From positions 9,721 through 73,720 of the forward strand of contig DATIID010000008.1 of NCBI GenBank assembly GCA_035480035.1: a stretch of DNA of 64,000 nt, written 5' to 3'. This DNA is from Candidatus Saccharimonadales bacterium. GTDB lineage: Bacteria > Patescibacteriota > Saccharimonadia > Saccharimonadales > OMJO01. This document shows positions 3,716 through 63,778 of the stretch, one piece after another. Below the pieces are notes generated by a model. The model was not told the origin of the DNA. It worked only from the letters and a program-made list of their open reading frames with translations, and searched no databases. Every line of letters begins with the position of its first letter. Positions within the stretch are counted from its first letter, which is position 1. A program made the position numbers and the translations under genes.

Positions 3716-4063
3716 CTAGGCGCTCACTAGGCTATCGGGTTTATCTGGTGTGGCGACTTCAGGCAACATTAGAGTTGGGGCCTGAACGTGTTCAAGCGTA
3801 GTTTCCGGAGTCGGATGCATTAGTAATGAAACTGGGGTGGCATCAATCTGAACAGGCTCAGCATTAAGTCCAGCTTGGATCATTGCTTCTTTGCCTATAA
3901 CCCGTTTTATCATTTCACCTTGTTCGCGTGAATGAAATCTAGCTTCTGATATGTCGCGAGCTTCATCTCTATTTAGGCCTACGGCAGCAACAAAAATGGG
4001 GTCGTTTTTGGAATTTAACCCAGAAAGTTGATGCGCGTTTGGGAAACTGTTGGGATCTTTCAT
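3716..4063 (-). CDS. hypothetical protein (115 aa)
   Basis: GAAAGGAA Shine-Dalgarno and its own promoter. No recognisable domain. Confidence 0.6.
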   Translation of the reverse strand: MKDPNSFPNAHQLSGLNSKNDPIFVAAVGLNRDEARDISEARFHSREQGEMIKRVIGKEAMIQAGLNAEPVQIDATPVSLLMHPTPETTLEHVQAPTLMLPEVATPDKPDSLVSA

Positions 4064-46326: not shown

Positions 46327-46385
46327 AAATAAACTCCTAAACTAATTACATCATACCACCTCTGTCGAGAAGTGTAACCGTTTGG

Positions 46386-55303: not shown

Positions 55304-56626
55304 CTAGTTAACTAGAGTACGTGAACGAAGCGCTTGGTGGGCTTGTTCGATTTCATTCCATGGGTGTTCACCATCAGCATGTTCAATAGTTTTTTCGTGA
55401 CCCTTTCCCAATAATAACACCGTGTCGCCAGTTTTGGCACGGTTGATGGCAAATTGAATTGCTTGTGGTCGATCGTGAACCAAGAACAGGTCTTTGTCTT
55501 GGACTTTGCCGGATCTCTCTGCCCCGACGGTAATATCTTTCATAATGTCGGCTGGATTTTCTTGGCGATCGTCCTCTTCGCAAACAATCACTTCATCGGC
55601 GTATTTGCCCGCAATTTCACCCTGCAAGGGTCGCTTGGTTATATCGCCACCACCTAGACTGCCAAAAAGCGCAATAATTTTACCTGTGGTCATCGGTTTC
55701 ATATCTTTAAATAACTTCTCAAAACTGTCAGGAGTGTGGGCATAGTCAACTATCACTTTGAAATCCTGACCTTCGTCAATTGGTGTCATCCGGCCTTCCA
55801 CTTCTTTTAAGCTCGCAATGCCCTGCTCAATTTGGTGGCGGCTAAGGCCAATTACCACACCAACAGCAGCGGCAGCCAAAGAGTTTTCGATATTGAAACT
55901 ACCGGGCAAATTGCACTTAATTCGGAGCTCTTGCGGTTCCGCCTTGGGTTGTACCAACATCGCCCGATATTCACTGCCAGTCGGTGTTTGATGAATATCA
56001 GTGGCTCTTAAATCACCACTGTTAATTCCGTAAGTAATGGCTCTCTCAATATCGTTTTTGAATAGTCCAGCACTGGGATCATCGGCGTTAATCACACCAA
56101 CGCGTAAGCCATTACGGTTTTTGTTAGCCAGCTTGAATAATTTACGCTTGGCATCGCGATATTTCTCAAAAGTACCGTGATAGGCGATATGTTCGTGCGT
56201 AACATTGGTCATGACCGCGACGGAAAATGGCACGCCCCAGGTGCGGTGCTGGGCTAAGCCTTGAGAGGTTGTTTCCAAAACTACCCAGTCGACCCCCTGC
56301 TCTTTCATCCACTTCAAACGCCGCATCAGTTCGGGCATCGGCTGACTGGTCATGTGGTGCACTTGCTGATGAATGTCCTCGTTAACACCGTAGGCAACCG
56401 TGGTCATCAAGCCGCTTTTAAGCCCAGCTGACCTGAGCATCTGATGAATCATAAAACAAGTTGAGGTTTTGCCGTTGGTGCCAGTAACACCAATAACTTT
56501 TAAGCCCTTGCCCGGGAAACCGCTGATGGCATTGTACAAAATCCCCTCACCCATGTGACCATATGGCTCAATCACCGGAAAAACACTTTTGGGAATAACT
56601 TTTTTAACGACTGTTCTGACGCCCAT
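55304..56626 (-). CDS. murE: UDP-N-acetylmuramoyl-L-alanyl-D-glutamate--diamino-acid ligase (MurE)
   Basis: GVTGTNGKTST P-loop and the Mur ligase middle and C-terminal domains. The canonical DNPR motif is replaced by EDDRQENP, so substrate specificity is unclear. I prefer the ATG at 56626. The ORF-track start at 56719 would overlap tsaD. Confidence 0.88.
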   Translation of the reverse strand: MGVRTVVKKVIPKSVFPVIEPYGHMGEGILYNAISGFPGKGLKVIGVTGTNGKTSTCFMIHQMLRSAGLKSGLMTTVAYGVNEDIHQQVHHMTSQPMPELMRRLKWMKEQGVDWVVLETTSQGLAQHRTWGVPFSVAVMTNVTHEHIAYHGTFEKYRDAKRKLFKLANKNRNGLRVGVINADDPSAGLFKNDIERAITYGINSGDLRATDIHQTPTGSEYRAMLVQPKAEPQELRIKCNLPGSFNIENSLAAAAVGVVIGLSRHQIEQGIASLKEVEGRMTPIDEGQDFKVIVDYAHTPDSFEKLFKDMKPMTTGKIIALFGSLGGGDITKRPLQGEIAGKYADEVIVCEEDDRQENPADIMKDITVGAERSGKVQDKDLFLVHDRPQAIQFAINRAKTGDTVLLLGKGHEKTIEHADGEHPWNEIEQAHQALRSRTLVN

Positions 56627-56638
56627 ATCTAGAGATAC

Positions 56639-56646
56639 AGTATACT
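56639..56646. promoter_or_regulatory. palindromic AGTATACT giving a TATACT -10 box on both strands in the 27-bp murE/tsaD spacer
   Basis: Plus-strand TATACT at 56641..56646 lies 7 nt from the tsaD GTG at 56654. Minus-strand TATACT at 56644..56639 lies 12 nt from the murE ATG at 56626. Confidence 0.4.
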
Positions 56647-56653
56647 TGGTTTT

Positions 56654-57715
56654 GTGAAAATATTGGGAATTGAAACTAGTTGTGATGAAACTGCTGCCGC
56701 TGTGATTGAAGACGGCCACAAATTACTATCCAATGTTGTGGCCAGTTCAATGGATTTGCACGCCATTTACGGTGGTGTAGTGCCGGAAATTGCGGCGCGT
56801 AGTCATATTGAATCAATCATGCCGGTTATTGAAGAAGCTCTCCAAACTGCCAAATGCCAGTGGTCAGACATTGATGGGATTGCCGTCACTCAAGGTGCTG
56901 GATTAGGTGGTTCCCTGTTAATTGGCGTTTTAACGGCTCGAACTCTAGCCATTATCAAAAATAAGCCGCTTTACGCTATCAACCACGTTGAGGGTCACCT
57001 CTACGCTAACTTCTTAACCAAAACGGCTCTAAAGGGCTATAAATTGCCAACGGACGCACCGAAATTCCCCCTGCTTGGCCTAATTGTTAGCGGTGGTCAT
57101 AGCCAACTGGCTTATTTCAGAAACCACTTTGACTATGATCTGCTCGGGCAAACTGGCGACGATGCAATCGGTGAAGCTTTTGATAAGGTCGCTAAAATTC
57201 TGGGCCTGCCCTACCCTGGCGGCCCAAGCATCGGCCAAAAAGCCCTCGATGGTAATCCTCATAAATATCTGTTGCCAAAAGCCAAGATGACCGAAAAGTA
57301 CGACTTCAGCTTTAGTGGCTTAAAAACCGCTGTTTTAAGGCTGGCTCAAGCCGAATGCGGCAAATCATATGATTTCCCCTCGTCTAAGCTATCTGATCTG
57401 TTATCTGAGGCTCAGAAAGCCGACATTGCGGCTAGCTTTCAATACACTGCAATTGAAACGGTAGTTGATAAAACTGTTAAAGCTTTTGAAGAATTTAAAC
57501 CTAAAAGTGTCATCATCGGCGGCGGCGTAGCTAGTAGCCCAGAATTACGTCGTCAATTATCGCTTCGACTCTCCTTGCCTATCAGTTACACTGACCCCAA
57601 ACTGTGCACTGACAACGGTGCCATGATCGCCACTCTTGGCTGTTTTAAAATGAAACTCAAACAACCCACAGCCGACCCTCACAAACTCGATATCGCTCCT
57701 AACCTATCTATGTAA
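56654..57715 (+). CDS. tsaD: tRNA N6-adenosine threonylcarbamoyltransferase
   Basis: KILGIETSCDETAAAV N-terminus, HVEGHL, SGGHS. GTG start. Confidence 0.95.
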   Translation: MKILGIETSCDETAAAVIEDGHKLLSNVVASSMDLHAIYGGVVPEIAARSHIESIMPVIEEALQTAKCQWSDIDGIAVTQGAGLGGSLLIGVLTARTLAIIKNKPLYAINHVEGHLYANFLTKTALKGYKLPTDAPKFPLLGLIVSGGHSQLAYFRNHFDYDLLGQTGDDAIGEAFDKVAKILGLPYPGGPSIGQKALDGNPHKYLLPKAKMTEKYDFSFSGLKTAVLRLAQAECGKSYDFPSSKLSDLLSEAQKADIAASFQYTAIETVVDKTVKAFEEFKPKSVIIGGGVASSPELRRQLSLRLSLPISYTDPKLCTDNGAMIATLGCFKMKLKQPTADPHKLDIAPNLSM

Positions 57716-57851
57716 TGTTTACTACTATTGTCAATATTGACCTCTGTTGTATCTCTGTTATGCTTATAGGGTAACACAAACATTGGGCAACATATCCGGC
57801 GGGACGGATCGTACTTCCAAACAAAAGTGTCAGTAACAGGGAAGCGCAGAG

Positions 57852-57889
57852 GGTTTTCACACGAAAACCTTGTGTGTTTTTGTGTTTTT
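57852..57889 (+). terminator. hairpin GGTTTTC-ACAC-GAAAACC followed by a T-rich tract (terminator of tsaD or of an sRNA, or an attenuator of valS)
   Basis: 7-bp stem at 57852..57869, followed by TTGTGTGTTTTTGTGTTTTT. Confidence 0.5.
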
Positions 57890-57967
57890 CATGTGAAAAG
57901 AGAACAGATTAGAATTCAAGCCTCAAAGGTGATATGCTGGGGCTATTGTTGAGGCAATATAACAGAT

Positions 57968-60526
57968 ATGAAGTTACCTAAAGTTTATCAATCAGAACAA
58001 TACGAGTCAGACATTTACAAGAAGTGGGAAGAATCCGGTGCTTTTGAGCCAACTAACAGAGGCAACGATGGCATCTACAGTATTGTCATGCCACCGCCGA
58101 ACGCTAATGGCGACCTGCATATTGGCTATGAATTAACAGCTGCGTTAGAAGATATTGCCATTCGCTATCACCGGATGAAAGGCGAGAAAACACTACTAAT
58201 ACCTGGAGCCGATCATGCTGGTTTTGAAACTCAGGTAGTGTACGAAAAACATTTGGCCAAGCAGGGCAAAAGCCGGTTTGATTACAGTAGGGAAGAGCTA
58301 TACCAGCAAATTTGGGATTTCGTGGCCAAAAACAGAGGTAATTTTGAATCACAGATGCGTAAAATGGGTGTCAGCTCGGATTGGTCACGCTTCACCTTCA
58401 CGCTTGATGAAAAGATCATTAAAACGGCCTATAGAACATTCAAGAAAATGTGGGATGAGGATTTAATCTACAGAGGCGAACGGTTAGTCAACTTCTGCAC
58501 ATTTCATGGCACCTCTTTCTCAGATATTGAGGTGGTTTACCGCGAAGTTGCTGGCCATCTTTGGTACATTAAATATCCGCTAACTGATGGCAGCGGTCAC
58601 CTTGCAGTTGCCACTACCAGGCCGGAAACCATGCTTGGCGACACGGCGGTAGCTGTTAATCCCAAGGACGTACGTTATACCAAATTTGTTGGCAAAACTA
58701 TCAAACTACCCCTGACACACCGCGAAATTCCGATTATTGCTGACGAGTTTGTGGACAAAGATTTTGGCACTGGCGCTGTAAAAGTCACACCGGCTCACGA
58801 CCCGAACGATTATGACATGGGCATGCGCCATGACTTGCCGTTTATTTCCGTAATCGATTACGAAGGCAAGATGACGGCCCATGTACCGGAAGTCTACCGC
58901 GGTTTAGATGTTAAAGAGGCCCGGCATAAAGTTGTCGAAGACTTGAAAGAGCAGGGCTTTTTGGAGAAAGTTGAAGACCATCAGCACAGCGTTGGCCACT
59001 GTTACAAGTGCGATACGGTGATTGAACCACTACTTAAAGATCAGTGGTTTGTCAGCATGAAACCGCTGGCCGAACAGGCTATCAAAGCATTGAAAGCCGA
59101 CAAAATTGAATTTTATCCCAGGACCAAGCTTCAACAATCAATTACATACCTAGAACAAATCCGCGACTGGAATATAAGCCGTCAAATCGCTTGGGGTATC
59201 CCAATTCCAGCTTTTCAAAATGTCGATAACCCCGACGATTGGATTTACGACGAACGGGTTGACCAAGAAACAATTGAAGTCGATGGCAAGACTTACCGCC
59301 GTGATCCCGACGTGTTTGATACTTGGTTTAGTAGTGGTTCCTGGCCCTATTCGACGCTCGACTTTCCAGACGGCACTGACTTCAAAGAATTTTACCCGCT
59401 GAGCCTCATGGAAACTGGCGGTGAAATTTTGTATCAGTGGGTCTGCCGCATGATTATGCTGGGTCTATATAACACTGGTGATGTACCATTTAAAGCAGTT
59501 TATATTCATGGCTATGTCATGGCTGAAGACGGCTCCAAAATGAGCAAGTCGATCGGCAATGTCGTTGATCCAATGCCAGTGATTGAACAATACGGCTCGG
59601 ACGCTTTGCGCATGGGTATTGTTGCCGGACGCTCAGCGGCAGTGAACCGCGGTTATGATTCGCGAAAGGTTGAAGAAGCCCGCAATTTCGCCAACAAGTT
59701 GTGGAACATAGCGCGTTTTATTGAAGGCAAAGTCGACAATTTAAAATTCGGCATAGAACCACAACCTAAAACGATTGCTGATGACTGGATATTGCATAAA
59801 TTACAACAATTAACAGAGGTGGTGGGTGAATATTTAGACAGTTATCGGTTTGCTGAAGCTTACAAGGTTTTGTACCACACGGTTTGGGATGATTTAGCTG
59901 ACTGGTACATTGAAGCTTCTAAAACCAAGACTAATAGCAGTATTATAGCTTTTGCTTTAGAGACGGTTTTGAAAGTCGCTCATCCATTTGCACCATTTGT
60001 AACTGAAACAATTTGGCAACAACTTGGCGGCGATAGTTTGTTGATAGTTAGTCCTTGGCCAAAAGTTGAGTTCGTCAAGTCAGCTGGGGTTAAAGATTTT
60101 GAAGAGGTTAAAACTATTGTTGAAGAAATTCGTTATATCACAACTAGCATGAAACTAGCTGGTGTCAGCCTGCATTACAATGATGAGCAGTTTATCGCTG
60201 ACAATGCAGATCTTATAAAATTATTGGCCAATTTAAAGAGTGTAACAGAGGTAAAAGAGGGTAGGGGGTTAAACTTAACCAGCACTTCGCACAGTGTTTG
60301 GCTGGACATTGATGAGCAAACGGCTAAAGCTTTCGTGGCCCAACTTGCCGATAAAAAAGCCGAGCAGGGCAGGGTGGTTAAAATGCTCGAGGACAGACTC
60401 AAGAATAACAGCTATGTCCAAAACGCACCCAAAAATATTGTTGATCAAACCAAAGCCCAGCTAAAAGAAGCTGAGGAGTTATTAGCCAAAATCAGTGCCG
60501 AGCACGAGCGCTTCGCTAAGCACTAA
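57968..60526 (+). CDS. valS: valine--tRNA ligase
   Basis: PPPNANGDLHIGY (HIGH) and KMSKSIGN (KMSKS), editing domain, C-terminal coiled coil. Confidence 0.97.
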   Translation: MKLPKVYQSEQYESDIYKKWEESGAFEPTNRGNDGIYSIVMPPPNANGDLHIGYELTAALEDIAIRYHRMKGEKTLLIPGADHAGFETQVVYEKHLAKQGKSRFDYSREELYQQIWDFVAKNRGNFESQMRKMGVSSDWSRFTFTLDEKIIKTAYRTFKKMWDEDLIYRGERLVNFCTFHGTSFSDIEVVYREVAGHLWYIKYPLTDGSGHLAVATTRPETMLGDTAVAVNPKDVRYTKFVGKTIKLPLTHREIPIIADEFVDKDFGTGAVKVTPAHDPNDYDMGMRHDLPFISVIDYEGKMTAHVPEVYRGLDVKEARHKVVEDLKEQGFLEKVEDHQHSVGHCYKCDTVIEPLLKDQWFVSMKPLAEQAIKALKADKIEFYPRTKLQQSITYLEQIRDWNISRQIAWGIPIPAFQNVDNPDDWIYDERVDQETIEVDGKTYRRDPDVFDTWFSSGSWPYSTLDFPDGTDFKEFYPLSLMETGGEILYQWVCRMIMLGLYNTGDVPFKAVYIHGYVMAEDGSKMSKSIGNVVDPMPVIEQYGSDALRMGIVAGRSAAVNRGYDSRKVEEARNFANKLWNIARFIEGKVDNLKFGIEPQPKTIADDWILHKLQQLTEVVGEYLDSYRFAEAYKVLYHTVWDDLADWYIEASKTKTNSSIIAFALETVLKVAHPFAPFVTETIWQQLGGDSLLIVSPWPKVEFVKSAGVKDFEEVKTIVEEIRYITTSMKLAGVSLHYNDEQFIADNADLIKLLANLKSVTEVKEGRGLNLTSTSHSVWLDIDEQTAKAFVAQLADKKAEQGRVVKMLEDRLKNNSYVQNAPKNIVDQTKAQLKEAEELLAKISAEHERFAKH

Positions 60527-61374
60527 TCTTCTAGCTCTAACGCGCTACGGACCCGATCAGTTGATTCACCTACCCGATAATCATCAAACCATAGCACGTG
60601 CCAGCCCATTTTTTCAGCAGCCATTAAATTAGCCCGCGAATCGTCAACCAGCAAGATTTCGTCTGCCGGAACACCGGCCTTTTTCTGGGCAATTTCATAG
60701 ATTTCTGGCTCCGGTTTAATGGCTCCTACCTCTGAGGAATCAACAATTACGGTGTAGCTCACGTTTGGTAATTTCTCTCGGGCAAACAAGGCACTTATGA
60801 AGCCGGGCATAATGTTGCTTAACAGGCCAACATGGTAATTTTCGGCCGCCCAAGCTACCAAAGGCTGCATTTCATCAATGGCATCGACAGCATCCAGGTA
60901 ATAGGCCTGCCAATCAATGGTTTTGATACCCAATCGCTCGGCGAAAGCCTTATCAAATTCATCAACACTCATTTTGCCACGGCAAACCGCGTCGTTGTTG
61001 TGCCAAAAAGTTGATTCAATCACGTCAGCCGGGGCGCCAGTATCTTCGGCCAATCTGGTAAAAGCTCGGTGGAAAAAGCGTACCAAACAGCCATTGATAT
61101 CAAAATAGATGAAGCGAATGCCGCTTTTAGAGCGCTTTTTGAGTGAGCTGGCAGAATTAGTCGGTTCGCCCATTAACTCGCTTAGACTCACCCCTAAAGC
61201 GCTGGCGATACTTTGAATTGTAAAAATAGACGGTGATTTAATGGCGCCACGTTCAATCTTGGCCAAAGTTGAGTAGCTGAGACCAGCCTTTTGACAGAGC
61301 TGCTGCTGAGTTAAGCCAGCCTTTTTTCGGGCATTTTGTAGACCACGACCTAAACTGACTTCGTCTATACTCAT
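60523..61374 (-). CDS. fusion protein: XRE-family HTH domain plus HAD-superfamily hydrolase domain
   Basis: N-terminal LTQQQLCQKAGLSYSTLAKIERG (HTH_3), then the HAD motifs FDINGCL, LLSN, KPEPEIY and LVDDS. I prefer the ATG at 61374. The ORF track starts at the TTG at 61410. Confidence 0.75.
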   Translation of the reverse strand: MSIDEVSLGRGLQNARKKAGLTQQQLCQKAGLSYSTLAKIERGAIKSPSIFTIQSIASALGVSLSELMGEPTNSASSLKKRSKSGIRFIYFDINGCLVRFFHRAFTRLAEDTGAPADVIESTFWHNNDAVCRGKMSVDEFDKAFAERLGIKTIDWQAYYLDAVDAIDEMQPLVAWAAENYHVGLLSNIMPGFISALFAREKLPNVSYTVIVDSSEVGAIKPEPEIYEIAQKKAGVPADEILLVDDSRANLMAAEKMGWHVLWFDDYRVGESTDRVRSALELED

Positions 61375-61454
61375 TAACCCTATGATACTAATTAAACAGG
61401 TTAAATCCAAGCAAAACTAGCACTAAACGGCTAGTTTGGTTATTTTGGTTTTGC

Positions 61455-61649
61455 TTATTTATTCCACCACTCAGGCAGCAGGGCTAGGATGCCAAGGATC
61501 AATAGGTAGCAAACAACGAACGAAACCCCAGCAATGGTACCGGCAGTTCTAACATCTGATGATGTTGAACGCATCATTTTGGTGTACATCCATGTAGAAA
61601 AGCCAAAGCTTATAATCCCGCCGATTGTTAAATTCTGACTGCTAAACAT
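61455..61649 (-). CDS. small two-TM membrane protein (64 aa)
   Basis: TATGAT at 61661..61656 lies 6 nt upstream of the ATG at 61649. Two hydrophobic helices. Confidence 0.5.
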   Translation of the reverse strand: MFSSQNLTIGGIISFGFSTWMYTKMMRSTSSDVRTAGTIAGVSFVVCYLLILGILALLPEWWNK

Positions 61650-61672
61650 AAGCTCATCATAACATTAAGTGG

Positions 61673-63688: not shown

Positions 63689-63778
<90 letters not shown>

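Follow-up and report, generated by a model that had tools for sequence, protein, structure and literature searches.

A conserved candidate small RNA with its own predicted promoter and terminator upstream of valS in Saccharibacteria

The 252-nt spacer between tsaD and valS in a Candidatus Saccharimonadales bacterium raises the question of whether it encodes an independent RNA, serves as the leader of valS, or carries only DNA-level signals. The window analyzed here is a stretch of 64,000 nt (assembly GCA_035480035.1, contig DATIID010000008.1, positions 9,721 to 73,720 of the forward strand), a compact genome fragment with a G+C content of 44%, and the spacer (57716-57967) is among its longest stretches without an open reading frame (ORF) of at least 90 amino acids (aa). 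As a whole, the spacer folds on the + strand with z = -3.3 against shuffled sequences. A preceding sequence-only reading had left two possibilities: an independent small RNA (sRNA) of about 120 nt, or a valS leader with alternative terminator and antiterminator folds. Judged from sequence comparison with about 90 related Saccharibacteria loci, the spacer holds a real, conserved and unannotated RNA element of an ordinary kind, that is, a small RNA or a leader-like transcript with promoter and terminator. We see roughly an even chance that it is a gene for a short, conserved non-coding RNA, transcribed from its own promoter to its own terminator, and that valS has a separate promoter downstream of it. 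The features on which the argument draws are given below in the order of the sequence.

56654..57715, +: tsaD, tRNA t6A37 threonylcarbamoyltransferase (Pfam PF00814, E = 1.3e-83)
57728..57742, both strands: palindrome TTGTCAATATTGACC, read as back-to-back -35 boxes, TTGACA (-) and TTGACC (+, P1)
57737-57742, +: putative -35 box TTGACC of promoter P1, N16 to TATGCT at 57759-57764; also detected by the promoter scan, with TG before the -10
57756..57764, +: putative extended -10 box TGTTATGCT of P1, predicted start near 57771
57771..57889, +: predicted small RNA, spanning the P1 start through the U-tract, about 115-119 nt
57773..57781, +: A-rich 5' motif, AACACAAAC in the window, family consensus AAAACAAAAA; predicted to be single-stranded in most members
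57794..57809, +: hairpin H1, ATCCG-GCGGGA-CGGAT, with stem covariation in relatives
57817..57827, +: second A-rich linker CCAAACAAAAG, with (A)ACAAAAG between H1 and the terminator conserved in most members
57835..57889, +: predicted intrinsic terminator H2, core stem AGGGTTTTC / GAAAACCTT at 57850-57871, U-run through 57889
57886..57899, both strands: palindrome with consensus TTCACGTGAA, in the window TTCATGTGAA (TTTTCATGTGAAAA); candidate DNA operator of the valS promoter
57930..57938, +: putative extended -10 box TGATATGCT of P2, the predicted valS promoter, start near 57945
57945..57967, +: predicted short leader of valS; GAGG at 57951-57954, 13 nt from the ATG
57968..60526, +: valS, valine-tRNA ligase (Pfam tRNA-synt_1, Anticodon_1, Val_tRNA-synt_C)

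Every motif listed by the sequence-only reading lies where it had been placed, and the Pfam assignments agree with its names for the two flanking genes. Relatives were collected by a ValS-anchored scan with one genome per species, which gave 80 Saccharibacteria loci (many counts below are out of 78), and the window's own sublineage (L129-L132) was fetched via the closest ValS proteins. Alignment A1 comprises nine upstream regions, those of the window and of eight relatives with nucleotide similarity. In most relatives, the upstream neighbor of valS is tsaD, with a gap of 16 nt to more than 2.6 kb, and the ValS proteins of relatives carrying the conserved RNA motifs are 52-75% identical to that of the window. 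The window ValS is 100% identical to the valine--tRNA ligase entry of a Candidatus Saccharimonadales metagenome-assembled genome, and the next closest protein is 75% identical.

The T, the A and the final T of the P1 hexamer are invariant across the nine sequences of A1, as is the GTCAAT upstream, and the A-rich stretch just 3' of P1 is partly invariant; this bears out the TTGACC-N16-TATGCT that had been called promoter-like before. A -10 box, followed after 7-9 nt by AAAACAAA, occurs upstream of valS in 35 of the 78 species-level relatives, with the motif, (G)AAAACAAAAA, lying 100-375 nt from the gene. The AACACAAAC variant of the window is common to the distant loci L073 and L074. Both P1 and P2 show the sigma-70 extended -10 pattern (TGnTAnnnT), with the 5' motif at its fixed distance after P1, and both are predicted promoters. 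Many genes of the window have TGnTAnnnT ending 5-10 nt before the start codon and lack a Shine-Dalgarno sequence, while others have AGGAG at -8 to -14. Because the genome's own leaderless genes use the TGnTAnnnT box, the two boxes of the spacer are credible promoters.

The sequence-only reading had named covariation of the hairpins in relatives as a check, and the H1 stem does covary. In a 19-sequence model-guided alignment, six of the seven H1 pairs show compensatory double changes and 92% of the cells are paired. The combined covariation score of H1 and H2 was matched by none of 500 shuffles, sliding the partners by 1-3 columns destroyed the signal, and a structure-blind MAFFT alignment of 8 sequences upheld the result. 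Taken in the window alone, H1 is not beyond chance (z = -1.0) and is rescued solely by the covariation in relatives. Its stems read ATCCAG/CTGGAT in L129, ATCCGG/CCGGAT in L131 and ATCCG/CGGAT in the window, with unrelated loops (ACTG, TCGTG, GCGGGA). In the larger, canonical subfamily the loop is RNNCCA, followed by YGCAC, and this loop differs in the window, L129 and L131; the conserved single-stranded motifs of that subfamily are GGUA, the loop CCA, GCAC, ACAAAAG and YGGU. Two further structures around H1 were considered and set aside. A closing helix (P0) pairs inconsistently. An H-type pseudoknot between the loop NCCA and a downstream UGGN is unproven: a fourth pair seemingly covaries in five sequences, and the counter-cases are CCCA against UGGU in L032, L084 and L098, CGGC in L100 against the loop of L085, and the window's sublineage, which is without the pairing.

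The hairpin GGTTTTC-ACAC-GAAAACC (57852-57869) with its T-rich tract, already recognized from the sequence, lies within the larger H2, whose stem is extended by pairing of an A/G-rich arm on its 5' side with part of the U-tract. H2 (57835-57889) folds with -27.2 kcal/mol (z = -6.05), is followed by UUUUUGUGUUUUU and was also found by the terminator scan. Among the 19 aligned sequences, nine pairs of H2 could be followed, three of them with double changes, and 89.5% of the cells are paired, many as G-U. A crude scan found a hairpin of -8 kcal/mol or lower directly before a U-run (at least 5 U in 8) in 41 of the 47 loci carrying P1. H2 has the features of an intrinsic (Rho-independent) terminator and is predicted to act as one; its efficiency, like the start sites, is a prediction. 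Frequent G-U pairs, for instance in 12 of 19 sequences at one terminator pair, place the RNA on the + strand, that of valS, because they would be A-C mismatches on the other strand. The predicted RNA as a whole (57771-57889) has a minimum free energy of -40.4 kcal/mol (z = -4.2), and none of 200 shuffles was as good.

A covariance model built from 8 sequences and a second model match 57770-57890 at 82.8-84.6 bits, scores to be read as those of a seed sequence, and find a single copy in the 64 kb. The first model also detected further copies in relatives, with which the second agrees; the second round, directed toward divergent members, gained only L132 and L022 at E < 0.001. The RNA is missing from about half of the related species. 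Searches with Rfam 15 at the gathering threshold returned only tRNAs in the window and 17 relatives, and at E <= 10 nothing meaningful on the window spacer or L025. The cmscan check proposed earlier has thus been run and matched no family, in agreement with the initial impression that no signature of a T-box, signal recognition particle RNA, 6S RNA or transfer-messenger RNA is present. A coding role is excluded because starts, stops and indels are inconsistent. A leader peptide or leaderless small ORF from ATGAAAACAAAA would have its ATG in only seven loci, with stops scattered over 5-38 codons; as for a protein-coding gene, indel lengths do not keep to multiples of 3, a deletion removes H1 in some members, and the 41-aa and 50-aa ORFs of the spacer have no Pfam match.

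Whether the terminator simply belongs to tsaD can be judged from the relatives. By sequence reading and by the terminator scan of the window, no terminator was found 3' of the tsaD stop (57715) and before P1, and in the window H2 would halt transcripts of tsaD as well. A minus-strand gene separates tsaD from P1 in L001, L129, L130, L131 and others; with this divergent gene in between, the terminator of L001, L129, L130 and L131 can serve P1 alone. The unit is also kept where tsaD lies more than 600 nt away behind a convergent gene. On the minus strand of L001 (2740-2790) and L129 (2300-2350), TTGACA is followed by 17 nt, TATGAT or TATTAT, 8-9 nt and the ATG of a divergent leaderless gene. In view of this divergent promoter, the conserved GTCAATATTGAC palindrome is two back-to-back -35 boxes, a point overlooked by the sequence-only reading; the window keeps the GTCAATATTGAC box, its minus-strand -10 is degenerate and the divergent gene is absent. 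This interval between tsaD and P1 is a hot spot, occupied in relatives by differing minus-strand genes. The intervening genes of L001, L129 and L131 are mutually unrelated, those of L001 and L129 being without a Pfam domain, and the divergent genes were accordingly rejected as partners of the RNA.

The independent sRNA of about 120 nt proposed earlier fits the conservation of P1, the fixed 5' motif, the covariation of H1, the hairpin with its U-run and the divergent-gene loci. For valS itself, P2 is the probable promoter, which had also been overlooked. Its TG, TA and final T are invariant in A1, and a TGnTAnnnT box is found upstream of valS in nearly all relatives. In 18 loci the box ends 7-13 nt before the start codon, and therefore a leaderless valS mRNA is implied there. 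The window has 29 nt between P2 and the valS start, and the spacing from GAGG to ATG is longer than in the other Shine-Dalgarno-led genes of this genome. The stem GCCTCAA/TTGAGGC (57920-57926 and 57949-57955), to which the sequence-only reading had drawn attention, is present in the window, but it is not beyond chance (z = -1.7), is not conserved, and has its 5' arm upstream of the P2 start; the TAGAAT box (57910-57915) likewise exists and is not conserved in relatives. In six relatives, P2 and the palindrome are separated by an extra hairpin with a T-run. The P2 box in its 'ACAGAGGTGGTATGAT' form recurs at 46350-46363 (-), 24 nt upstream of a gene with its own Shine-Dalgarno sequence, and it is on this account a promoter feature and not a ribosome-binding site. 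In L010, L023, L027, L037, L038, L041, L019 and L051, the distance from the P2 box to the valS start is 85-145 nt; these long stretches contain G+C-rich hairpins (e.g., GTGTGGCAGTACGCCACAC in L010) and may be further leader elements or small ORFs.

Between H2 and P2 lies the palindrome at 57886-57899, previously described as a second hairpin, TTTTC-ATGT-GAAAA. The inverted repeat is there, but as an RNA fold it is not beyond chance (-1.9 kcal/mol, z = -1.35), and its behavior is that of a DNA site. In 54 of the 78 loci, a match to TTCACGTGAA (at most one mismatch) lies in the 400 nt before valS, and 66 of the 112 matches in 615 kb fall at -300 to -1 relative to valS. A second cluster of matches inside valS coincides, by codon reading, with a conserved S/T-R-E-E peptide region, and the only other match in the window (at most one mismatch) is at 3923-3932, within an ORF. 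The palindrome varies mainly at its central CG and is conserved in sequence rather than by covariation. It is also found in loci that lack the RNA and have no more than about 60 nt between tsaD and valS (L042, L044, L045, L052, L053). In 26 of 53 loci, 37-44 bp separate its center from the next TGnTAnnnT box; the window has 40 bp. We infer that 57886-57899 is a protein-binding DNA site for P2 at about -52 and not an RNA hairpin. About half of the carriers hold a second copy of the palindrome in the terminator loop region. This second copy explains why two 14-mers of the window are 93% complementary; as the downstream one is transcribed only after the U-tract, their pairing cannot prevent termination.

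Several observations touch the same palindrome. The HTH_3-HAD gene after valS was considered as the source of its binding protein and rejected, as it is present in 63 of 69 loci regardless of the palindrome and absent from L074-L080, which have the palindrome. In L072 and L076-L080, two TTCACGTGAA palindromes 31-37 bp apart flank the region before the ATG, about 25-65 nt upstream of valS. In these loci, which belong to a more distant clade, a separate P2 of the TGnTAnnnT type was not found; the palindromes there may bracket a core promoter in a repressor-like manner or sit in the 5' untranslated region. The window also has a direct repeat, AAGAGAACAGATTAGAA (57898-57914) and AATATAACAGATATGAA (57956-57972), through which the sequence 3' of the palindrome is similar to the start region of valS, possibly a vestige of an older, shorter palindrome-to-ATG layout as in L072-L080.

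A number of points weigh against a discrete small RNA. The complement of the 5' motif is not enriched in the 64-kb window (17 matches vs 22 expected), the motif itself is low-complexity sequence, and no candidate target or partner protein for the RNA was identified. The H1 loop is not conserved in the window's own sublineage, and in L130 and L132 H1 is gone altogether, leaving just the 5' motif and the terminator (about 75 nt), so that the structured part of the RNA may be dispensable. Because these two loci keep 5' motif and terminator without H1, H1 is an optional module, and what stays constant in the family is P1, the terminator and the free A-rich 5' end. The terminator and the two promoters are read from consensus and conservation. 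In the L072-L080 clade no separate P2 is evident, and transcription may continue into valS. The tight linkage of the RNA to valS also belongs here. A degenerate RNA pattern (5' motif, GGKA, loop CCA, GCAC) was scanned against a metagenome collection as a valS-free search and gave 48 exact matches, of which seven scored 48-114 bits with the model and the remainder less than 29 bits; the low-scoring ones look like chance hits within coding DNA, and the seven high-scoring copies are exactly those with valS 170-290 nt downstream (7/7). Both distances were measurable in 36 loci: in 16 of them an insertion of more than 300 nt separates tsaD from the RNA, and in one (L022) a gene separates the RNA from valS. 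This linkage hints at a role in cis, and it suggests a functional connection of the RNA with valS. It is strong but not absolute: L022, with a gene between RNA and valS, yet keeps P1, the 5' motif, the covarying H1 and the palindrome. Part of the insertion asymmetry may come from the need to keep the upstream signals of valS intact.

One rival reading is a cis-acting attenuator or leader, in which P1 is the regulated source of valS transcripts, the terminator is conditionally bypassed through a protein, tRNA or metabolite, and P2 is basal; we regard this as possible, with a modest chance of being right. Genes for aminoacyl-tRNA synthetases (aaRS) are classic attenuation targets, as in T-box and leader-peptide systems, and the RNA is co-oriented with and directly upstream of valS in 7/7 anchor-free matches and in 35 of 36 loci. 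The single-stranded motifs of the canonical subfamily persist though ValS is only 52-75% identical to that of the window, and the clade of the L073/L074 type has no visible separate P2. Yet a conserved antiterminator is missing. The competing pairing CACAC/GTGTG suggested by the sequence-only reading is not conserved in relatives, and AACACAAA / TTTGTGTT, although 8/8 complementary in the window, is not conserved either; a pyrG-like antiterminator, in which the 5' GAAAAC would pair with the terminator arm GUUUUC, fails in L012, L024, L017 and L025, which have another terminator sequence. The attenuator is less likely because no alternative fold is conserved and a promoter with a fixed-distance candidate operator stands between terminator and gene. 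It is also less likely because a read-through RNA would often present the valS AUG without a ribosome-binding site, valS being leaderless from P2 in many relatives, and because some lineages add a tandem terminator. The dispensable H1 and the complementary second palindrome, made only after the U-tract, speak against it as well, and the valS leader with alternative folds, the second of the earlier possibilities, is not supported. Alternatively, the spacer could contain DNA-level signals only, a tsaD terminator plus a cluster of promoters and operator, with the short P1 transcript a functionless by-product. We consider this unlikely. It would accommodate the GTCAATATTGAC palindrome, explained by the back-to-back -35 boxes of a divergent promoter for which the window has no gene, the DNA-like behavior of 57886-57899, an H2 that would terminate tsaD in the window with no other terminator past 57715, and the lack of the RNA in about half of the related species. 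On the other hand, the compensatory changes of H1 and the G-U-rich helices indicate selection on RNA pairing, the 5' motif keeps its 7-9 nt from the -10 box despite the divergence of ValS, and the unit persists where tsaD is distant behind a convergent gene.

Two further possibilities let the RNA act through what it binds. A protein-sequestering or autoregulatory RNA, whose ACAAAA motifs or hairpins bind an Hfq/Crc-like factor or valyl-tRNA synthetase (ValRS) in the manner of CrcZ or the thrS operator, is improbable, and it overlaps with the small-RNA reading rather than excluding it. Two AAnAAnAA-like copies (57773-81 and 57817-27) with a hairpin between them and the tight linkage to an aaRS gene would suit it, but no partner protein was identified for the RNA, and the Val anticodon (NAC) occurs in a minority, about 5 of 11 distinct H1 loops, so that a consistent tRNA-Val mimic, in the H1 loop or the CACGTG palindrome, was rejected. 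A miniature or degenerate T-box riboswitch sensing tRNA-Val is hardly credible. The T-box bulge is UGGNACC, with N = U expected for discriminator A73, and in several relatives UGGUACC or UGGUACU just 5' of H1, upstream of valS, resembles this bulge. Despite that string, the reading fails at every defining feature examined and was rejected. There is no Stem I with a specifier loop and a distal tRNA-elbow platform, a single hairpin of 5-7 bp being all that precedes the terminator in the RNA; the UGGN-like string is variable, about 60% of members having U at its first position and the window reading GGGC; the hairpin beside that string lies about 25-40 nt upstream of the terminator arm and does not overlap it; a promoter and the palindrome separate the terminator from valS; L130 and L132 lack H1; and the Rfam T-box model matches neither the window spacer nor L025 at E <= 10, nor any of 17 relatives at the gathering threshold. 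A small chance is left for a T-box-independent class of aaRS-linked riboregulators specific to Saccharibacteria and the Candidate Phyla Radiation (CPR), that is, a valS-adjacent short terminated RNA sensing valine, tRNA-Val or translational status. Such an RNA might sense through GGUA, the loop NCCA, GCAC, ACAAAAG and YGGU, possibly with a loop-to-tail pseudoknot, and would adjust valS by conditional read-through or by action on the adjacent promoter and operator.

Under the reading of a short non-coding RNA gene followed by a separate valS promoter, the first module (57737-57889, +) would consist of P1, starting the RNA near 57771, and H2, ending it with the hairpin 57835-57886 and a U-run to about 57889. 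Rather than serving as the 5' leader of valS, the RNA would then work as a separate short molecule, through base-pairing or protein binding of its A-rich segments. The second module (57886-57967) would hold the TTCACGTGAA-type palindrome and, 40 bp downstream of it, P2, from which valS would be transcribed; a dimeric DNA-binding protein at the palindrome would probably control P2.

The remaining features concern promoter usage in this genome and the surroundings of the locus. Leaderless mRNAs seem very common in this Saccharibacterium, with extended -10 promoters the local norm, and literature searches found no description of leaderless genes in Saccharibacteria. Examples of such starts, and the sites of a motif AACAGAGG(TG), or its complement CCTCTGTT, that recurs around promoters in the window and many relatives, are as follows.

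3016(-), 3326(-), 21185(-), 21771(-), 22238(-), 22940(-), 23970(-): leaderless-type starts with extended -10 box (examples)
27484(-), 37708(-), 37747(+), 41959(-), 42664(-), 42720(+), 56654(+): leaderless-type starts with extended -10 box (examples)
57741-57748, 57752-57758, 57846-57853, 57903-57908, 57961-57966, 58055-58062: sites of the motif AACAGAGG/CCTCTGTT

The AACAGAGG motif is found within the spacer of P1, immediately 5' of the divergent -35 box and past the palindrome; in relatives it is joined to the P2 box as ACAGAGGTGnTATGAT, and it precedes the valS ATG as TAACAGAT. tsaD looks leaderless, with TATACT, 7 nt and GTG. The Mur-ligase gene at 55304-56719 (-), in its longest ORF, overlaps the tsaD start by 66 nt, the two genes being divergent, and one of the two starts is probably over-called. 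A fusion of a helix-turn-helix (HTH, XRE-type) domain and a HAD hydrolase at 60523-61410 (-) is convergent to valS and overlaps its end by 4 nt. The tRNA-Ser (CGA) at 63689-63778 (-) is the sole Rfam or ARAGORN match in the 64 kb. The earlier claim that the spacer is the longest non-coding stretch is roughly true; by a crude map of ORFs of at least 90 aa, 61411-61672 (262 nt) is about equal, and three gaps larger than the spacer each hold ORFs of 74-88 aa.

Almost nothing is known about the control of core translation genes in the tiny-genome Saccharibacteria and CPR, and literature searches found no report of this RNA, nor of regulatory RNAs or an sRNA system in Saccharibacteria or other CPR. 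Should the element prove to be an ordinary sRNA, covariance-model libraries would still gain a family so far unannotated; if it senses tRNA or an amino acid without a T-box, it would be a new class of aaRS regulator. The RNA, the fixed-distance palindrome and the widespread leaderless genes bear together on promoter architecture, termination and aaRS regulation in the phylum.

Among known systems, T-box leaders (RF00230) share with the element a position upstream of and co-oriented with valS, an intrinsic terminator and, in some members, a UGGUACC-like string by a hairpin. They differ in that the element has no antiterminator overlapping the terminator, is about 115 instead of 200-300 nt long, and is followed by a separate valS promoter. 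The sponge RNAs CrcZ and CrcY likewise carry repeated AAnAAnAA-like single-stranded A-rich motifs in a small terminated RNA, whereas only two such motifs are found here. HMP2_2419, a 126-bp candidate structured RNA found near valS, leuS and ileS in an unclassifiable taxon of human-microbiome data (PMC8040213), is similar by its description in size, in association with valS and in a poorly classified host, and differs in lying also near leuS and ileS.

For the palindrome, the comparison is with operators of the alaS type and other dimeric operators. Putney and Schimmel are said to have described, in 1981, the autoregulation of E. coli alaS via a palindrome at its own promoter. The site upstream of valS is similarly a sequence-conserved perfect palindrome at a fixed distance from an aaRS promoter. 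In contrast, its position at about -52 in the window's clade suits an activator rather than a repressor, and in about half of the carriers a second copy lies inside the sRNA terminator.

For the RNA, the comparison is with sRNAs of the RybB/OmrA type. The element departs from them in its A-rich, low-complexity seed and in a valS linkage tighter than synteny demands. It resembles them in having its own predicted promoter, a length of about 100 nt, an unpaired 5' end as the most conserved part, an internal stem-loop that varies, a strong terminator hairpin ending in a U-tail, and a stable synteny with one neighbor gene. By this analogy, its build appears typical of a bacterial sRNA acting through a free 5' end.

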